NCBI GenBank assembly: GCA_963921275.4
Contig: OZ001293.3
Location: 5,312,001 to 5,376,000 of the forward strand
Direction of reading: 5' to 3'
From: an uncultured Hormoscilla sp.
GTDB lineage: Bacteria > Cyanobacteriota > Cyanobacteriia > Cyanobacteriales > Desertifilaceae
DNA length: 64,000 bases
The notes beneath the pieces were generated by a model, which was given only the letters and a program-made list of their open reading frames with translations, was not told where the DNA came from and ran no database searches. Positions 12,586-53,716 of the stretch are shown piece by piece. The first letter of the stretch is position 1. Each line of letters opens with the position of its first letter. The position numbers and the translations under genes were made by a program.

Positions 12586-12686
12586 TGATAGACCAAGGTG
12601 TGACTCGTTCCGGCGTAAGTCAGAAATATGACGATAGTCTGGCTAGTATTACACTAGCACCTCAAAATTAATTCAGCAACCAAAAA

Positions 12687-15600
12687 ATGAAGCATAAATT
12701 TTTTACCAACACCATCGTAGTAGTGGATGCCTCCCTAGAAAACTACCAGCAGCTTATAGACGGCATCCGGCCTGGGGCCAAATCTTTCCTCTTAGACCCT
12801 CAGTCCGATGGTATCCAACAGATCGGCGAACTTCTTCGACAGCATCAAGAAACAGAGGCTCTGCACCTACTTTCCCACGGCAGCCCTGGCTGTCTGTATC
12901 TGGGAAACTCTCAATTGAGTTTAGATACTCTAGGAGATTACGCCTCTACCCTGCAGAAGTGGAAGGTAAAACAACTCCTACTCTACGGCTGTAACGTCGC
13001 CGCCGGAGATGCAGGAGAGGAGTTGATGACTAAGCTACAGGCCCTGACCGGGGCATCCCTTGCCGCCTCTACTACCCGGACAGGGGCAGCAGCCCGAGGC
13101 GTAAATTGGGAGTTGGAGTGGCGAACTTCCGGGATAGAAACTCCCTTAGCATTGTCCGCAGAAGCTCAGATGGCCTATGGGGGCATATTGGCCCCCTCAA
13201 TCAGCAGGATTATGAGGCCTTAAAAGCTCTATACCAAAGCACGGGTGGGGCTTCTTGGCTGAGGAATACAGGCTGGCGGGACTGGAATTTCAACAGCGCA
13301 ACTCCCCCTGATGCTTCTATTGTTCGCAGTTGGTCAGGGGTGTGGGTAATTAACAACAGGGTGACGTCGCTCCGCCTGGGCAACAACCAACTGACTGGCA
13401 GCATCCCGACGGAGTTAGGGAATCTTTCCAATTTAGAACGGCTCCACCTGGGTCTCAACCAACTGACTGGCAGCATCCCGACGGAGTTAGGGAATCTTTC
13501 AAATTTGGAACGGCTCCACCTGGGCCTCAACCAACTGACTGGCACCATCCCGAATCAGTTAGGGAATCTTTCCAATTTGGAAGAGCTCTGGCTGAACAAC
13601 AACCAACTGACTGGCACCATCCCGACGGAGTTAGGGAATCTGCACAATTTAAAATTGCTCATCCTGCACAACAACCAACTGACTGGCACCATCCCGAGTC
13701 AGTTAGGGAATCTGCACAATTTGGAAGAGTTCAACCCGAGCAACAACCAACTGACTGGCACCATCCCGAATCAGTTAGGGAATCTGAACAATTTGGTAAA
13801 GCTCACCCCGAACAACAACCAACTGACTGGCAGCATCCCGACGGAGTTAGGGAATCTTTCCAATTTGGAACAGCTCTACCTGTACAACAACCAACTGACT
13901 GGCAGCATCCCGACTGAGTTAGGGAATCTTTCCAATTTGCGATATCTCGATCTGGACAGGAACCAACTGACTGGCAGCATCCCTACGGAGTTAGGGAATC
14001 TTTCTAATTTGCAAGAGCTCGACCTGTACAACAACCAACTGACTGGCAGCATCCCGAGTCAGTTAGGGAATCTTTCCAATTTGCAATTGCTCTACCTGTA
14101 CAACAACCTTCTGACTGGCACCATCCCCCAAGGGGTACTAGATTTGCAGGCTGACAAGCGATTGGAAAACCCCCCTTATGTAAAAACCGAGATTCCCGAC
14201 TTCGAGTTCTTGCCAGGTAATAACCTCAACATAGACATTAGCGAAAACTTCGGCGACATCAATGACAACATCAACAACTACACAGCTACCGGTTTACCAG
14301 GGGGCGTAACCATCAACTCTCACGGAGTTATCAGCGGTATCTCTACTACCGCAGGCATCTTTACCGTAACGGTAACCGCCATCGACCGAGCGGGATATAA
14401 AGGGATAGATACCTTTGACATTGTTATAAAGAACTCCTTTCCTACCGATCTAGAACTCAGCAACAGCAGCATCGATGAAAACTCCGCAGTCAATAGCGTC
14501 GTGGGGACTTTCGGAACTATCGACCCAGACAGTGGAGATACCTTTACCTACCAGTTAGTCTCAGGCGTTGGTGACCGTGATAACGCCGCCTTCACCATAG
14601 AAGGGAACCAACTGCTAACTAACAGTTCACCGGACCATGAGACCAAACCGAGTTACAGCATCCTCATCCAAACTACCGACGCTGCTGGGGCCAGTTACTC
14701 CGAGGCCTTTACCATTAACGTCAACGATGTTCCCGAGTCTCCTACCGGCCTCAACCTCTCTGGCAGCAGCATTGATGAAAACTCCGCCGTCAATAGCGTC
14801 GTGGGGACTTTCTCCACTACAGACCCAGACAGTGGAGATAGCTTTACCTACCAGTTAGTCTCAGGCGCCGGCGCCTCCGACAACGCCGCCTTCACCATAG
14901 AAGGGAACCAACTGCTAACTAACAGTTCCCCGGACTATGAGACCAAACCGAGTTACAGCATCCGCGTCCAGACTACCGACGCTGCTGGGGCCAGTTACTC
15001 GGAGACCTTTACCATTAACGTCAACGATGTTCCCGAGTCTCCTACCAGTCTCAACCTCTCTGGCAGCAGCATTGATGAAAACTCCGCTGAGGGTGCAGTC
15101 GTGGGGATCTTCTCCACTATCGACCCCGACTCTGGAGATACCTTTACCTACCAGTTAGTCTCAGGCGCCGGCGCCTCCGATAACGCCGCCTTCACCATTT
15201 CCGGGGACCAACTGCTAATTAACAGTTCACCGGACTATGAGACCCAGTCGAGTTACAGCATCCGCGTCCAAACTACCGACGCTGCTGGGGCCAGTTACTC
15301 GGAAGCCTTTACCATTAACGTCAACGATGTTCCCGAGTCTCCTACCGGCCTCAACCTCTCTGGCAGCAGCATCAATGAAAACTCCGCATCGGGTAGTGTC
15401 GTGGGGATCTTCTCCACTATCGACCCAGACAGTGAAGATACCTTTACCTACCAGTTAGTCTCAGGCGCCGGCGCCTCCGACAACGCCGCCTTCACCATTT
15501 CCGGGGACCAACTGCTAATTAACAGTTCACCGGACTATGAGACCCAGTCGAGTTACAGCATCCGCGTCCAGACTACCGACGCTGCTGGGGCCAGTTACTC

Positions 15601-16243
15601 AGAAACCTTTACCATTAACGTCAACGATGTTCCAGAGGTTGGCCTACCAATAGTCGGTGAGGATAGTCAGAACGACTACCTCCGGGGGACGCCCAACGGG
15701 GAACAACTGTTAGGTCTAGGAGGAGAAGACCGGCTCTTTGGGAAAAAAGGGAACGACACCCTCATCGGCGGAGGTGGAAACGATCACCTCTACGGAGGTG
15801 ATCGAGACGACTCCCTCATCGGCGGACATGGAAAAGATTACCTCTACGGAGAAGATGAGAACGACTCCCTCATCGGCGGATATGGAAACGATACCATCTA
15901 CGGAGAAGATGGGAATGACTCGATCATCGGCGGAGATGGAGACGATATCCTCTACGGACAAGATGAGAACGACACTCTCATCGGCGGACGTGGAGACGAT
16001 ACCCTCGAAGGAGGGGAGGACGCCGATATTTTTGTTCTGAAGCAGGGCCATGGCCGGGATACCATCATAGACTTTGAAGATGGCACGGACAAGATCGGGC
16101 TAGCAGGAAGTTTGAGTTTCAACGATTTGCAGATCGTCTCTCAGGGCCAAAATGTCTTGATTATTGGAGAGGAAACCCTGGTCACCCTACAGCGCATTGA
16201 TTTGACCCTGATTACTAGCGATGATTTCACTGTGGTTACTTGA
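12687..16243 (+). CDS. Large surface or secreted protein: DUF4347 - 11 LRRs - Ig-like - 4 cadherin-like repeats - RTX Ca-binding tail; frameshift at a C5 tract near 13192
   Basis: LHLLSHGSPG..LYGCNVAAG (DUF4347); 24-aa LxxLxLxxNQLTGxIPxxLGN units; 100-aa DEN..DPDSGD..DYET repeats; GGxGxD nonapeptides. Confidence 0.88.
13360..14130 (+). repeat. 72-bp LRR-coding tandem repeats (11 units)
   Basis: Recurring AACCAACTGACTGGCA(G/C)CATCCCGA...GTTAGGGAATCT. Confidence 0.95.
14440..15635 (+). repeat. 300-bp cadherin-like coding repeats (4 units)
   Basis: Near-identical units at 300-nt period. Confidence 0.95.
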
Positions 16244-17009: not shown

Positions 17010-18724
17010 TCAGTTCGGGTCCAGCTGGGCCAGCCAAATAGCTGTATCCGCCCCTTCTTCAGGCGATCGGGTAGCCCCCGCACCACCCATCTCCGTCCGC
17101 ACCCAGCCCGGAGACATGGCATAAACCGCAATGCCTTGCGATCGCAGGGTATCTGCTAACATGATAGTCGCGCCATTGAGCGCAAGTTTGGACAAACCAT
17201 AAGCTGCTGGTACGCTAGCAGACAAGGTGTTCAACTGACCGTATTCGCTGGAAACATTAATAATGCGAGCTGCGGGAGCTTTTGCAAGTAGGGGGAGAAA
17301 AGCTTGGGTAACACTTATGGCACCAAAAGCATTAATATGCAGTGCGACTCGTTTCGGCCTAACCTGTACAAACACGGAAAAGCCGAGCCAAAATTGGACT
17401 GAATGTTTAGAACCAAAACTAATCATAATCAGGCTCAATATGGTAACTCTGGTCATCATGGGGGTTAAATTCCCTCTCCCCAGGTGTGGGGGTGACACCG
17501 GTCCTTAGTGCTGCGGAGTGACATCACCGTGGTGCGGAGCAAGGACTTAAATGTAGGATAGCTGACAGCCCAAAGTCGGCAACTCCGCTAGGAAAGATGC
17601 TCATGGTTAGGAAAACGAATCTGTGAAAGCCTCGTTATGTGTAACCAGCGGAAGAAGGCTTACACGCTGGCCTAAAAAGGAAATGGTAGCTAGTGTTGGC
17701 TGTTGCATATGGCCAACATCACACTCAAAGTAGCTCCCGGGGTAAAGCAGGGACCTAAAAACATCGTGAAATGATACCAGGGAACGAAGTAACTCCACGT
17801 GTGCTGTCCATAACTACTCGACTATCGACCGGTGGTCAGGAGATAGGGACCAGTTAGATGATAAGCGTAAGCCATGTGGAGAGAGATGGCCCAAGAAGCA
17901 AAGGACAGGGGTAACTCCTTGTATAAGTGGTGCAGGAATGTACCGGCAGACGTGGGTCGGATATAGTTGGAAATCTTGGGTGGAAGTATCCCTAATACGT
18001 ACCAAAAATCAGGAGAAATCCTAGATTGTAATATGGACTAAAACTCTAGCCGGGTAAAACTTGAAAAGTCCCCTAATGACGAGACAGGGGCAATGTTAGC
18101 AAAGAGCGGTATAAGTGGTTTCCTGGATACCCCCCGCGAACCTTCCGGAGCTAGATACGAAACAGTCCTATCGACTACCATAAAGGGGAAAAACTGCATA
18201 AGAAGAGGGACAAAGGGAGCAATCCCCAGTAATCCTGCCAATGACAAGGTCCAACTAACCAGTAGCCGTGTGCGATGAAAACCGCATGCACGGTTCGAAA
18301 GGGAGGGTTGGGAAGCGATTCCCAGCTCTACCCCTAATTCGTCAGATCCAACAGATCGCGAGAAATGTTGAGCCGGTTGAGTCCCCCATCGGGTAAAATG
18401 CCAGCATTATTGATCAGCACATCCAGGCGATCGCATTCCCGATCGCGTAGCGTGGCGCAGCCATGTTAAAGCCTGTGCGGCGCGGGAAATACTTCGATCG
18501 TCAGTAACATCAAGTTGCATCGCGGCAATGCGCGATCCTGGGGCTTTTAACTGCGCCGCTCTTTGCCCTTGGCGTTCGCGTAGCGTGCGCGCAGCGCATG
18601 CGATCTGGCTGCTATAATCACGTCAAAGCCGACATATAGTAATCCTTTACAAATAGCAAAACCGATGCCTTTATTGCCACCTGTAACTAGAGCTGTTTTT
18701 CCCTTAAATTGTGCATTCATCATC
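17010..18724 (-). pseudogene. Short-chain dehydrogenase/reductase interrupted by an antisense group II intron, two short-repeat insertions and a frameshift
   Basis: TGGNKGIG, LDVLINNAG, YGLSK, SPGWVRTEMG; removing 17342-18338 joins LT-A|TG-HINAFG. Confidence 0.9.
17342..18338 (+). ncRNA. ORF-less group II intron (997 nt), antisense to the SDR gene
   Basis: GTGCGA start; DV AGCCGTGTGCGATGAAAACCGCATGCACGGTT; DVI ending CTACCCCTAAT; loop TGCATA complementary to 5' flank TATGCA; host gene rejoins exactly. Confidence 0.93.
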
Positions 18725-47354: not shown

Positions 47355-47545
47355 CTGGGGTCTCATAGTCCAAAGAACTGTTAGTTAGCAGTTGGTCCCC
47401 TACTATGGTGAAGGCGTTGTTGCCGGAGACTAACTGGTAAGTAAAGGGATCTCCCAGGTTGGGGTCGGCCCAAGCCTGCCAGAAAGTCCCCACGAATACG
47501 ACAATGCTGCTGTTACTGAGCTCTAGGTCGGTAGGAGAGGAGTGC
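47355..47545 (-). pseudogene. Degenerate extra cadherin-like repeat
   Basis: Matches 14431-14645 with deletions. Confidence 0.7.
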
Positions 47546-49078
47546 TCTGAAAATCGCTCACGTAAATCGTTTTAATCCCTTGCAGGGTGGCCAGGGTTTC
47601 CCCTTCAAAGTTAATCAAGGTATTTCGGCCCTGAGAGACGATCTGCAAATCGTCTCTACTCAAATCTCCTGCTAGCCCGATCAAGTCCGTACCCTGTTCA
47701 AAGTCTATGATAGTATCCCAGCCCATGCCCGACTCCAGGACAAAAAGATCGGCGCCCCCTCCTCCGTGGAGGGTATCGTTTCCATCTCCGCCGATGAGAG
47801 TGTCTTTCCCGTTGCCTCCGTAGAGGCGATCGCTTCCCTCTCCGCCGATGAGTCCGCCGATGAGGGTGTCCCCCTCTTTCCCAAAGAGTGATAAAGTTAG
47901 GGGTTGGGGGTTGAGGGTTAGGGGTTGACGAGTATTGCTGAAGTTACGGCTGGGAGGAGACTCGGGAACATCGTTGACGTTAACGGTAAAGGCCTCCGAG
48001 TAACTGGCCCCAGTAGCGTCAGTAGTCTGGACGCGGATGCTGTAACTCGATTTGGTCTCATAGTCCGGTGAACTGTTAATTAGCTGTTGGTCCCCTGCTA
48101 TGGGGAAGGCGGCGTTGTCTTCGGCGCTGGCGCTTGAGACAAACTGGTAGGTAATGCTATCTCCATTGTCGGAGTCGGTAATGGAGAAAGTCCCCGCGGC
48201 GCTATTGACTGCGGAGTTTTCATCAATGCTACTGTCAGAGAAGTTACGGCTGGGAAGAGACTCGGGAACATCGTTGACGTTAATCGTGAAAGCTTCCGAG
48301 TAACTGGCCCCAGTAGCGTCAGTAGTCTGGACGCGGATGCTGTAACTCGATTTGGTCTCATAGTCCGGTGAACTGTTAATTAGCAGTTGGTTCCCGGAAA
48401 TGGTGAAGGCGTCGTTATCATCGTCACCAACCCCTGAGACTAACTGGTAGGTAAAGGTATCTTCACTGTCAAGGTCGGTAGTGGAGAAGATCCCCACGAC
48501 GCTATTGACTGCGGAGTTTTCATCAATGCTGCTGCCAGAGAGTTCGAGGTCGGTAGGAGACTCGGGAACATCGTTGACGTTAACGGTAAAGGCCTCCGAG
48601 TAACTGGCCCCAATGCTAAGGGAGTTTCCATCCCGGGTGTCCGCCACTCCAACTTCCAATTTCCGCCCCGGGCTGCTGCCCCCGTCCGGGTAGTAGAGGC
48701 CGCGATGTCAGCCCTTAAAAGAGTCTGTAGCTTAGCCATCAACTCCTCTCCCGTATCTCCGGCGGCTACGTTACAGCCGTAGAGTAGGAGTTGTTTTACC
48801 TTCCACTTCTGCAGGGTAGAGGCGTAATTTCTTAGGGTATCTAAACTCAGTTGGGAGTTCCCCAGATACAGACAGCCAGGGCTGCCGTGGGAGAGTAGGT
48901 GCAGAACCTCTGTTTCTCGATGCTGTCGGAGAAGTTCGCCGATCTGTTCGATGCCATCGGACTGAGGGTCTAAGAGGAAGGGTTTGGCCCCAGGCCGGAT
49001 GCTGTCTATTAGCTGCCGGTAGTTTTCTAAGGAGGCATCTACTATTACTATGGTGTTGGTAAAGGATTTATGCTTCAT
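47523..49078 (-). pseudogene. Paralog of 12687-16243 lacking the LRR and Ig region (DUF4347 fused out of frame to cadherin repeats and RTX tail)
   Basis: Highly similar DUF4347; junction GAAACTCCCTTAGCATTG|GGGCCAGTTACTC near 48610. Confidence 0.85.
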
Positions 49079-49341
49079 TTTTTGGTTCCTCTCGCATTTT
49101 TGGGCCGAGGTGCTAATACCAGGCCTACTATTAGTATACATCATACTTCTGCTAATAACGAGTGCGGTCCGGAATTTTTTGAGCAATTTTCGACTCTGGT
49201 CGGTGGGTGTGGTTAAAACTCGTTGGTAGGAGGCCTCCCCAGCCCGAACTTTAAAGGGTCCGGCTACATGTATATAGCCCGCCTGCGCCGGCTATATACA
49301 TGTATCATCGATGCACCCCCAGCCCGAACCTTAAAGGGTCC

Positions 49342-50212
49342 GTGCGATTCGTTCTAGCCTAACGTGATCAAACACGGAACGCTAGCCCGGTTTCATTAGC
49401 CGGGAACTCTGACCGCATGGGGGTTAAATTCCCCTCCCCCCAGGTACGGGGGTGACACCGGTCCTCGGTGCTACGAAGCGACATCATCGTGGTGCTAAGC
49501 GAGGACTCAAATGTAGGATAACTGGCAGCCTAAGCCGGTGACGCCGCTAGGAAAGATATCCAAGGTTAGAGCAGGCAAACATGTGCAAGCCTCGTTATAA
49601 GGAACCAGCGAAATAAGGCTATATGCGCTGGCCTAAAAAGGAAATGGTAGCTAGTATTAGTTTTAGACTCTGGCTAATATAGTACTCAAATAGCTCCCGG
49701 GGTATAGTGTGGACCTAAAGGTATCGCGAAATGTTGTTAGGGAACGAAGTAACCTCTCGTGTGCTGTCCATCAGGACAAGTTAGATGTTAAGCGCAAGCC
49801 ACGGGGGGAGGGATGGCCCAAGAAGCGAATGCCCGGGGTAATTCCTGGGATAACATCTACAGTAATGTAGATGATGCTGGGTAGCCAGCGCTGACGTGGG
49901 TCGGTGATACTAGGAAGCTGCTGGAATGAGTAATCCTAAAAAGCCACGGAACTAATCCGAAACGCAAGTGGAGGATAAGGTATGGATAACTGGTAAAACT
50001 GACTTGAAAATGGTGATACTAACGGTTATCAGAACAACCACTCGCTAAACCAGGAAAGGGAAGAAAAGACAGGCGGCAAGGGCTAACGGAAGTAATTCCT
50101 ATTAAGTCTACCTATGAAAAGGGCCTAGTACCCAGTAGCCGGATGCGGTGAAAATCGCAAGTCCGGTTTCTCAAGGGAGGGTCGGGAAGCGATTCCCGGC
50201 TCGACCCCATCC
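49342..50212 (+). ncRNA. ORF-less group II intron (871 nt) inserted in a dispersed repeat
   Basis: GTGCGATTCG start; DV AGCCGGATGCGGTGAAAATCGCAAGTCCGGTT; DVI ending CGACCCCATCC; flanks rebuild AAAGGGTCC|GGCTACAT as in the empty copy at 49253-49269. Confidence 0.93.
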
Positions 50213-50334
50213 GGCTACATGAACAAAGCCCGCCTGCGCCGGCTATATACATGTATCATTGAGCCCTCCCCAGCCCGAACCCCCGGGGGGCTGGAGGGGC
50301 TCTTCTTGCCAACGGGCGTCAGACCACACTTCTG

Positions 50335-52069: not shown

Positions 52070-53716
52070 AGCTGTCCGTTAATTTTTGCTAAAGTTCGGG
52101 CTTTTTGCGCTTGTAGCTTTTCCCAAGCAGCCTCTTTACCAGGTGGTGGCGGCATCTTGGCAATTTTGGCTATGAGATCGCGATTGCGTTCTTCCCAATA
52201 CTGCCTGATTTCCTCAGCGTACTTCAAGACCATCTCATACTCAGCCTCCACTTCCTCGCGATTATTCTCAATGTATGACAAAGCTACGTTGATTTCGGAT
52301 GGGGTCGAGCCGGGAATCGCTTCCCGACCCTCCCTTGAGGAACCGGACTTGCGATTTTCACCGCATCCGGCTACTGGGTACTAGGCCCTTTTCATAGGTA
52401 GACTTAATAGGAATTACTTCCGTTAGCCCTTGCCGCCTGTCTTTTCTTCCCTTTCCTGGTTTAGCGAGTGGTTGTTCTGATAACCGTTAGTATCACCATT
52501 TTCAAGTCAGTTTTACCAGTTATCCATACCTTATCCTCCACTTGCGTTTCGGATTAGTTCCGTGGCTTTTTAGGATTACTCATTCCAGCAGCTTCCTAGT
52601 ATCACCGACCCACGTCAGCGCTGGCTACCCAGCATCATCTACATTACTGTAGATGTTATCCCAGGAATTACCCCGGGCATTCGCTTCTTGGGCCATCCCT
52701 CCCCCCGTGGCTTGCGCTTAACATCTAACTTGTCCTGATGGACAGCACACGAGAGGTTACTTCGTTCCCTAACAACATTTCGCGATACCTTTAGGTCCAC
52801 ACTATACCCCGGGAGCTATTTGAGTACTATATTAGCCAGAGTCTAAAACTAATACTAGCTACCATTTCCTTTTTAGGCCAGCGCATATAGCCTTATTTCG
52901 CTGGTTCCTTATAACGAGGCTTGCACATGTTTGCCTGCTCTAACCTTGGATATCTTTCCTAGCGGCGTCACCGGCTTAGGCTGCCAGTTATCCTACATTT
53001 GAGTCCTCGCTTAGCACCACGATGATGTCGCTTCGTAGCACCGAGGACCGGTGTCACCCCCGTACCTGGGGGGAGGGGAATTTAACCCCCATGCGGTCAG
53101 AGTTCCCGGCTAATGAAACCGGGCTAGCGTTCCGTGTTTGACCACGTTAGGCTAGAACGAATCGCACAGACTCTGTCAGGTTGAGAAGATTGCGAATAAA
53201 CTTGGGTGAATATTCTGCTTTCACGTAGTCCATCACGTCGTAGAGGGTTATGCGCTTGCCGTTGATCGAGAGTCCTCTTTCCGTGCGGACGATCGCCGCT
53301 GGTTTGGCATCATGCATGTTTATTTTATTGTGAGCCTTCAGCCCTTGCAGCCTTTTCCAAGCCGCCTCTTGACCAGGTGGTGGCGGCATCTTGGCAATTT
53401 TTACTAAGAAATTGCGATCGCGTTTTTCCCAATTCTGCCTAATTTCCTCAGCCTCCTTCCATAGCATCTCATACTCAGCCTCGACGGCCTCACGATTATC
53501 CTCAATGTATGACAAAGCCGCGTTCATTTCCGACTCTGTCAGCCAGAGAAGATCGATAATCATCTGGGGTGAATAATCATCTTTCAAGTAGTCCATCACG
53601 TCGTACAGGGTAATGCCCTTACCTGCGATCGTGAGTCCTATTTCCGTGCGGACGATCGCCGCCTGCTGGGAATCATTCATGTCTGTCATTTCCTGCAATT
53701 TTCTCTCTTTATCCAT
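52066..53716 (-). CDS. Tandem DUF433 antitoxin-like protein, two exons (53716-53168 and 52296-52066) split by a group II intron; 259 aa when spliced
   Basis: Two IVRTExGLxIxGKxITLYDVMDY units; exon join gives LTES|EINVALSYIE matching LTESEMNAALSYIE of the first unit. Confidence 0.88.
52297..53167 (-). ncRNA. ORF-less group II intron (871 nt), sense to the DUF433 gene; near-identical to 49342-50212
   Basis: Reverse complement of the other copy with two differences seen by eye; loop AGACTC complementary to exon end GAGTCT. Confidence 0.94.

Follow-up and report, generated by a model that had tools for sequence, protein, structure and literature searches.

Mobile group II introns spread by retrohoming, in which the excised RNA is inserted into a new site by reverse splicing. 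The introns TeI3 and TeI4 of Thermosynechococcus carry no open reading frame (ORF) and are served by a reverse transcriptase (RT) in trans. The dnaN introns of Trichodesmium are also ORF-less and served by an RT in trans (PMC12584367); ORF-less bacterial introns have been described as rare (PMC3245105, PMC8919778), and the highest published number of group II introns in a single genome, all types taken together, is 101 (PMC8919778). The group II consensus reads GUGYG...AY (PMC4424553, PMC4028801), with the end also written AXX(X)XRAY (PMC7923331). The penultimate base touches G1 and the last base pairs with gamma (PMC3669008), and the branch point precedes the 3′ end by 6 or 7 nt in most subclasses (PMC4748821).

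Departures from this consensus have been published. RmInt1 of Sinorhizobium meliloti ends in CC and has a gamma G; changing its penultimate C to A left splicing near wild type in vitro, G and U at this position were worst and impaired the second step, and its run of C residues reduced fidelity and gave circles (PMC4238363). A mobile intron with a penultimate C is therefore already on record (PMC4238363). The class B intron B.c.I4 splices downstream of a canonical-looking AY, which adds 50-70 nt and a seventh domain (PMC4424553). Introns of subgroup IIB2 are marked by the start GUGCGAUUC (PMC4649490) and by two extra stem-loops close to the 5′ end, where domain I has its base (PMC8643678).

The intron analysed here, from Hormoscilla, resembles RmInt1 in being a mobile group II intron with a CC end, a gamma G and a penultimate C, but RmInt1 has its own RT and is followed by an exonic CC, whereas the Hormoscilla intron is ORF-less and of the IIB2 type, is mostly followed by A, and has a UCC end, a spacer of 8 nt and about 140 copies (PMC4238363 for RmInt1). 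With the cyanobacterial IIB2 (CL2) introns N.sp.I4 and that of the Anabaena variabilis plasmid it shares the GUGCGAUUC start, the two 5′ stem-loops and EBS1/2/3 (PMC8643678, PMC4649490), as well as the departure from AY: by their published coordinates, N.sp.I4 and the A. variabilis plasmid A intron end in AUC (PMC8643678), and the introns of Nostoc UHCC 0926 and Calothrix NIES-4101 end in ACU. All of these carry an RT gene and have spacers of 6 or 7 nt, in contrast to the 8 nt of the Hormoscilla lineage (PMC8643678, PMC4649490). Just as the Trichodesmium dnaN and Thermosynechococcus TeI3/TeI4 introns, it lacks an ORF and has RT-bearing relatives in the same genome (PMC12584367 for Trichodesmium), but its copy number, with 139 full copies of one family, is far above theirs. 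Its end lies downstream of a canonical-looking AY as in B.c.I4, yet just 2 nt past the AU and without an extra domain (PMC4424553). The literature searched gave no account of an 8-nt spacer, of CY ends as a IIB2 trait or of Hormoscilla introns; older class descriptions may record the first two of these.

The ORF-less intron family of Hormoscilla

In the window, i.e., the whole stretch of 64,000 nucleotides analysed, Rfam Intron_gpII gave three matches, at 50134-50210 (+), 52375-52299 (−) and 18261-18338 (+). The first belongs to an ORF-less intron at 49342..50212 (+), hereafter copy A (RF00029, 45.4 bits with a cut-off of 40), and its match stops at 50210, at the AU, 2 nt before the real end. 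The same intron is present as copy B at 52297..53167 (−), sense inside a gene with tandem DUF433-type units. Both are 871 nt long, differ by 2 substitutions and run from GTGCG to GACCCCATCC, with the start GTGCGATTCG and with CC directly after GACCCCAT. The third match belongs to a related ORF-less intron of 997 nt at 17342..18338 (+), antisense in a short-chain dehydrogenase gene.

The original prediction spoke of twins, which is true of the window but understates the family: the genome (7.03 Mb) holds 163 matches of more than 95% identity to the intron, of which 139 are full copies. Half of the copies of length 871 (61/122) are identical to the consensus, thus indicating a recent spread. The copies are without an ORF, the longest stop-free frame being 58 codons. 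Two alleles of the domain V-VI linker at 50171-50172 (intron 830-831), TC in 102 and GA in 20 of the 122 copies of length 871, have both spread.

The element has the 5′ end GUGYG, a domain V at 50136..50169 (+) with the catalytic AGC triad (50137-50139) and the 2-nt AA bulge that had been predicted (50159-50160), and a domain VI at 50174..50208 (+) with a bulged A, the presumed branch A50204, and a basal GGG opposite a CCCC run. The 3′ consensus AY is absent, the intron ending in CC; since AY is a consensus with published exceptions such as RmInt1, the element is filed as a group II variant. The EBS1-IBS1, EBS2-IBS2 and EBS3-IBS3 pairings of subgroup IIB were all found. Its assignment to IIB2/CL2 was made on RNA features, namely the GUGCGAUUC start and two hairpins within the first 62 nt of the predicted fold, the 871-nt intron being devoid of an RT of the CL2 lineage. 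Conservation ends 8 nt past the bulged A, without the 50-70 nt extension that makes up domain VII in introns of the B.c.I4 type.

Several copies deserve separate mention. Copies have inserted after position 768 of the intron itself, in its own domain IV, five times in complete form (G000:C1:1325884, 4743593, 5180205, 6031315 and 6411996), and a sixth such site, at 3454542 of the same contig, lacks the 5′ part of the host intron. A head-to-tail pair lies at G000:C1:824934-826675 and a triple at 5447656-5450268, with exact end-to-start junctions. The copy at G000:C1:4362037-4362907 is antisense within a gene, the translation of which resembles a protein of the phosphoribulokinase/uridine kinase family. 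Copy A itself sits in a dispersed palindromic repeat (49240-49341 and 50213-50290) that is present in dozens of copies, several of them invaded by this intron; the similarity of this repeat to CRISPR-DR28 is weak (27.7 bits, below the cut-off of 35). Elsewhere in the window, two inverted paralogous genes at 12675-16243 and 47359-49186, built of 300-nt repeat units that are 87-90% alike, are likely to encode adhesin-type proteins; the region 47359-49186 starts with DUF4347.

The 3′ boundary at the DNA level

A comparison with the 3′ boundaries of other genomic copies, which the original prediction had proposed as a check, bore it out. Among 149 3′ ends reaching AT, 147 read ACCCCATCC and two ACCCCATTC, so that AT is followed by CC in 147 and by TC in two, and none ends at AT, even though the selection of 3′ ends would have retained copies stopping there. 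The first base after AT is thus C in 147/149 and the second in 149/149, while the third is variable (A in 104, G in 29, C in 10 and T in 6). A pattern with CC fixed and the next base variable is not due to chance.

Empty sites in the same genome gave the same answer. An uninterrupted matching site was found for 61 of the 139 full copies, five of these being tandem self-matches and the other 78 copies being without a match; all 61 matched without CC and none with it. For copy A, the tandem palindromic repeat at 49240..49341 (+) comprises an empty unit, whose junction lies at 49261/49262, together with the 5′ portion of the unit that was invaded; the predicted empty sequence GGGTCC|GGCTAC is indeed present at 49256-49267, and the junction has 36 uninterrupted matches in the genome. 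In the five complete self-insertions the host intron halts at 768 and resumes exactly at 769 around an inner GTGCG...ATCC unit.

The reading frames point in the same direction. When flanks were joined, the frame stayed open for 100 codons or more to both sides of the joint in 27 of 139 copies with the cut after ATCC, in one with the cut after AT and in none with the cut after ATC. For the second twin, the cut after ATCC leads in frame to EINVALSY..., which resembles the upstream paralogous unit, and keeping CC in exon 2 leads to a stop after 4 codons; that the frame requires CC to be intronic had been foreseen. The naming of this frame as DUF433 proved only partly right: Pfam DUF433 was found in the upstream unit (residues 29-70 of 183) and not in the unit split by the intron. 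CC proved to be intronic for both twins, but the first twin would not decide the matter by itself, since CC is also the end of its exon 1.

Finally, the pairing partners place both junctions. EBS1 (AGACUC, 49665..49670, +) pairs with positions −6 to −1 of exon 1 (consensus GAGTCT), and at 131 of 148 sites 5 or all 6 of the possible pairs form; with the 5′ junction moved 2 nt upstream, no site out of 148 reaches 5-6 pairs and the maximum is 4. The idea that CC is an extension of the 5′ end was thus rejected. EBS2 (UAAGG, 49598..49602, +) has its inferred partner at −13 to −9 of exon 1 (CCTTA in the flank consensus of 151 5′ ends), and this segment varies with the target across related clusters. 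EBS3 (U49705, +) pairs with the first base after ATCC, which is A or G in 133/149. Over 262 copies from 34 clusters EBS3 pairs with the next base in 205 cases, with a further 33 wobbles, compared with 7/262 for a cut two bases earlier. EBS1, EBS2 and EBS3 each change with the target across clusters.

Exon 1 ends in CC at just 14 of 148 sites, and therefore CC is not a duplication of the target; the absence of CC from the 61 empty sites likewise led us to reject this origin. A likeness of ATCC plus the following A to a CCA tail was dropped as well, that A being present in empty targets. Taken together, these data confirm that CC belongs to the intron and settle the boundary at the DNA level, and the original prediction of a mobile intron with a penultimate C stands in each of its parts: CC is intronic, the element has been mobile, and its penultimate base is C.

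Gamma, the penultimate base and the spacer across the lineage

In copy A the J2/3 GGA lies at 49811..49813 (+), with G49811 as gamma and partner of the terminal C50212, as opposed to A17884-G-A, with A17884 as gamma, in the relative at 17342-18338 that ends in ACCCCTAAT; both had been read correctly. A scan of the genome gave 369 domain V matches, 310 of them of the type of this element, and the 284 of these for which both ends were available formed 56 clusters. When the end was placed 8 nt past the bulged A, gamma was readable in 50 clusters, which are not independent because some are nested or chimeric; in all 50 it agreed with the last base (A-T in 36, G-C in 14). In a tree of 40 representatives, gamma fitted the last base in all 38 scored rows, with four independent pairs (p 0.125). 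There are two exceptions: one family copy combines gamma A with ATCC, and one gamma-G cluster has a copy ending in GACT. A gamma G matching the terminal C was thus rightly predicted, and this pairing is the same as in ordinary AC-ending introns.

The idea that gamma compensates for the non-canonical end did not hold. Gamma pairs with the last base and is therefore silent on the penultimate one. The 50 clusters end in CC (14), CT (22) and AT (14), so CY ends make up 36/50, and a penultimate C occurs together with gamma A in 22/50; with CU ends and gamma A the commoner combination, we rejected gamma as a compensation. The same applies to the AA bulge of domain V: its agreement with a penultimate C reaches just 26/38 rows, against 37/38 with gamma G (four of five independent pairs, all within the ORF-less lineage), so that it follows gamma G in this set, and a compensating role for it was rejected as well. 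In RT-bearing relatives gamma G goes together with an AC bulge and gamma A with an AA bulge; the coupling of the AA bulge to gamma G is possibly local to the ORF-less lineage and absent in the RT-bearing one.

The spacer between the presumed branch A and the 3′ end is CCCCATCC (50205..50212, +), of which 50211-50212 are the terminal CC. An equal distance in the 17342 relative had been claimed, and it is 8 nt in both; overlooked was that 8 nt, provided that A50204 is the branch, is itself outside the usual 6 or 7. A50204 is unpaired in predicted folds and conserved in every cluster end listed, and we infer that branching occurs there. In the predicted fold, two registers that differ by 0.6 kcal/mol are open to pairing between the GGG of domain VI and the CCCC run. 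The 17342 relative reads CTCTA before the CCCC run (18326-18330), its family representative CTCGA. All related clusters and the RT-bearing relatives of family f29 have the 8-nt spacer in common; a special connection of this spacer with the ORF-less clade was rejected, as it is found in RT-bearing introns too.

Outside this genome, a pattern scan gave at least 25 loci, all of them from Hormoscilla among the matches listed; among the same matches, gamma fitted the last base at all 17 loci where both could be read, and 16 of these had CY ends. The closest relative, 92% identical and from another genome of the genus (G004), ends in AGCC, and hence the penultimate C predates this intron family. The TCGACCCC type is present in 21 of the 144 genomes of family f29. 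Of 20 such loci 16 have a 5′ start, and 15 of these an RT frame; by both gamma and EBS3, 14 of the 16 fit an 8-nt spacer, with the ends AAT (7), ACT (6) and ATT (1).

Among RT-bearing plasmid introns, those of Nostoc UHCC 0926 and Calothrix NIES-4101 end in ACT and the other named ones in AAC or AAT; ACC/ACU ends occur in RT-bearing cyanobacterial IIB2 introns. For N.sp.I4 and the A. variabilis plasmid A intron, the published coordinates end at AUC on RefSeq records, with starts matched exactly (PMC8643678 Table S3). An ATCC end for N.sp.I4 was dropped, its EBS3 G and the published coordinates both placing the end at AUC. A 9-letter CY pattern matched 7 of 400 genomes of the phylum, and these were not retained as the 8-nt type: of three complete ones, one ended in ACC and one in AAC, both with 7-nt spacers, and one was ambiguous. 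In two further genomes (G453 and G454) the domain V-VI type of this intron was matched 115 and 108 times, with ORF-less families ending in TAAC and TACC among the matches; they represent a second swarm of this lineage.

The view of a CC end as exceptional cannot be upheld, given that RmInt1 ends in CC and that CY ends, found also in RT-bearing introns of other cyanobacteria, are the majority in the lineage (36/50). Within the lineage the penultimate base is not fixed and is A, C or, rarely, U.

Splicing, spread and the meaning of the CC end

The unit found in new sites is exactly GTGCG...ATCC, without target duplication; the sites match EBS1/EBS2/EBS3, and gamma matches the last C. With considerable confidence, we therefore regard the element as a protein-less group IIB2-type intron, the copies of which end in ACCCCATCC, and which likely splices and spreads in the ordinary way, the RT being likely borrowed from protein-coding introns elsewhere in the genome. 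Each copy would have arisen by reverse splicing, and for this reason the DNA junction would show where the excised RNA stopped at its 3′ side. During the second step, gamma G49811 would grip C50212 and EBS3 U49705 would grip the first base of the exon, and this double hold would set the cut after CC and skip the canonical-looking AU two bases earlier. G1 may make a non-Watson-Crick contact with the penultimate C, as in RmInt1. Branching would start from A50204 and, speculatively, the slip between GGG and CCCC in domain VI may absorb the extra base of the spacer. The three head-to-tail junctions fit re-homing through an EBS3 U-G1 wobble, which has been shown for another intron (PMC12584367).

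As for the helper, 44 RT matches in the genome score above the TIGR04416 cut-off. Among the 33 RT loci examined, 19 have a domain V downstream, 17 of these ending in AGTTTAAY, and none of the 19 is an RT-bearing member of the ACCCC-type lineage; the helper RT is thus a putative one, and the RT tree, built in quick mode, carries no class references. RT genes belonging to other group II introns have been invaded by many copies, most of them in antisense (G000:C1, many sites), so that the family breaks genes that likely provide its help. Long frames contain 22 insertions in sense and 26 in antisense, and hence give no sign of selection for splicing within host genes.

The alternative that survives best accepts ATCC as the mobile end but supposes that the RNA leaves mostly as circles or in linear form without a lariat, or splices loosely, partly at the AU 2 nt upstream, because the 8-nt spacer and the C-rich end misplace the branch A. 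Published data lend it some weight: RmInt1 with its C run splices less faithfully and forms circles (PMC4238363), circles were the only product of a Trichodesmium intron that has a bulged A (PMC4649490), and 6 or 7 nt is the stated norm for the spacer (PMC4748821). Rfam, moreover, aligns the intron end to the AU, and run X8 (window 52296-53166, L143) contains a 901-nt head-to-tail contig with the whole 871-nt intron closed end to start, at a depth of 203 and with almost no cover of the flanks. This contig may derive from a circular RNA, from transcripts of tandem copies or from sparse DNA coverage; the library type of the run is unrecorded, and the contig was not counted as evidence. Its junction occurs three times in the genome, as expected of re-homing through the EBS3 U-G1 wobble (PMC12584367). 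Against this alternative, none of the 149 copies ends at AT, RT-bearing relatives have retained the 8-nt spacer, and all cluster ends listed share A50204. We consider it unlikely.

Much less probable still is a spread of the copies as DNA, by recombination or by a transposase in trans, in which case the ends would be silent on where the RNA is spliced, and the ribozyme may no longer be active. It would agree with the lack of an RT in the element and of an orientation bias. It would also agree with the sequencing data, which count against our main reading too: the contigs of seven out of 24 runs (five of unrecorded type and two RNA runs with only relatives in them) contained no spliced exon junction or lariat; the two RNA runs showed no joint skipping an intron copy, and one contig of run X16 that joins across copy A may stem from the dispersed repeat. 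On the other hand, the targets match EBS1, EBS2 and EBS3, each changing with the target across clusters, there is no target duplication, and the gamma-gamma′ pairing is kept.

Least tenable, and already refuted at the DNA level, is a canonical end at AT, with CC belonging to the target (as a site requirement or a 2-bp duplication) or with two extra bases belonging to the 5′ end: the AU does sit at the textbook 6 nt past the bulged A, exon 1 of the first twin ends in CC and the Rfam match ends at 50210, but CC is found in 0/61 empty-site matches and at just 14/148 exon 1 ends, the frame test gives 1/139 against 27/139, EBS3 would face C (7/262 pairs), and shifting the 5′ junction by 2 nt destroys the EBS1 pairing.

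We thus return to a group IIB2-type intron with a probably borrowed RT: the CC end is a lineage variant with a known precedent that likely splices by ordinary chemistry, and the lineage-wide twist is a modest one, a free penultimate base together with an 8-nt spacer. A bolder interpretation, which we put forward tentatively and hold to be rather doubtful, is that a cyanobacterial IIB2 lineage, with and without RT, gave up the penultimate A and stretched the spacer to 8 nt by means of a slippery GGG/CCCC base of domain VI, yet ranks among the most prolific group II introns known; its architecture may be undescribed and its excision possibly mainly as circles. If true, the contact of G1 with the penultimate base and the ruler for the branch site would be far looser than the consensus says.

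The CC-ending intron reveals no new chemistry. What it corrects is a boundary that consensus tools place 2 nt short, Rfam stopping at the AU, and because of this short cut every host gene is misframed. It also shows that the CC end of RmInt1 is not a one-off, since copies that end in CC or CU and were mobile not long ago number in the hundreds. Dozens of related families differ in gamma, in the last four bases and in the domain V bulge, which makes this genome a natural mutant series for the choice of the 3′ splice site and for the way in which domain VI sets the branch point.
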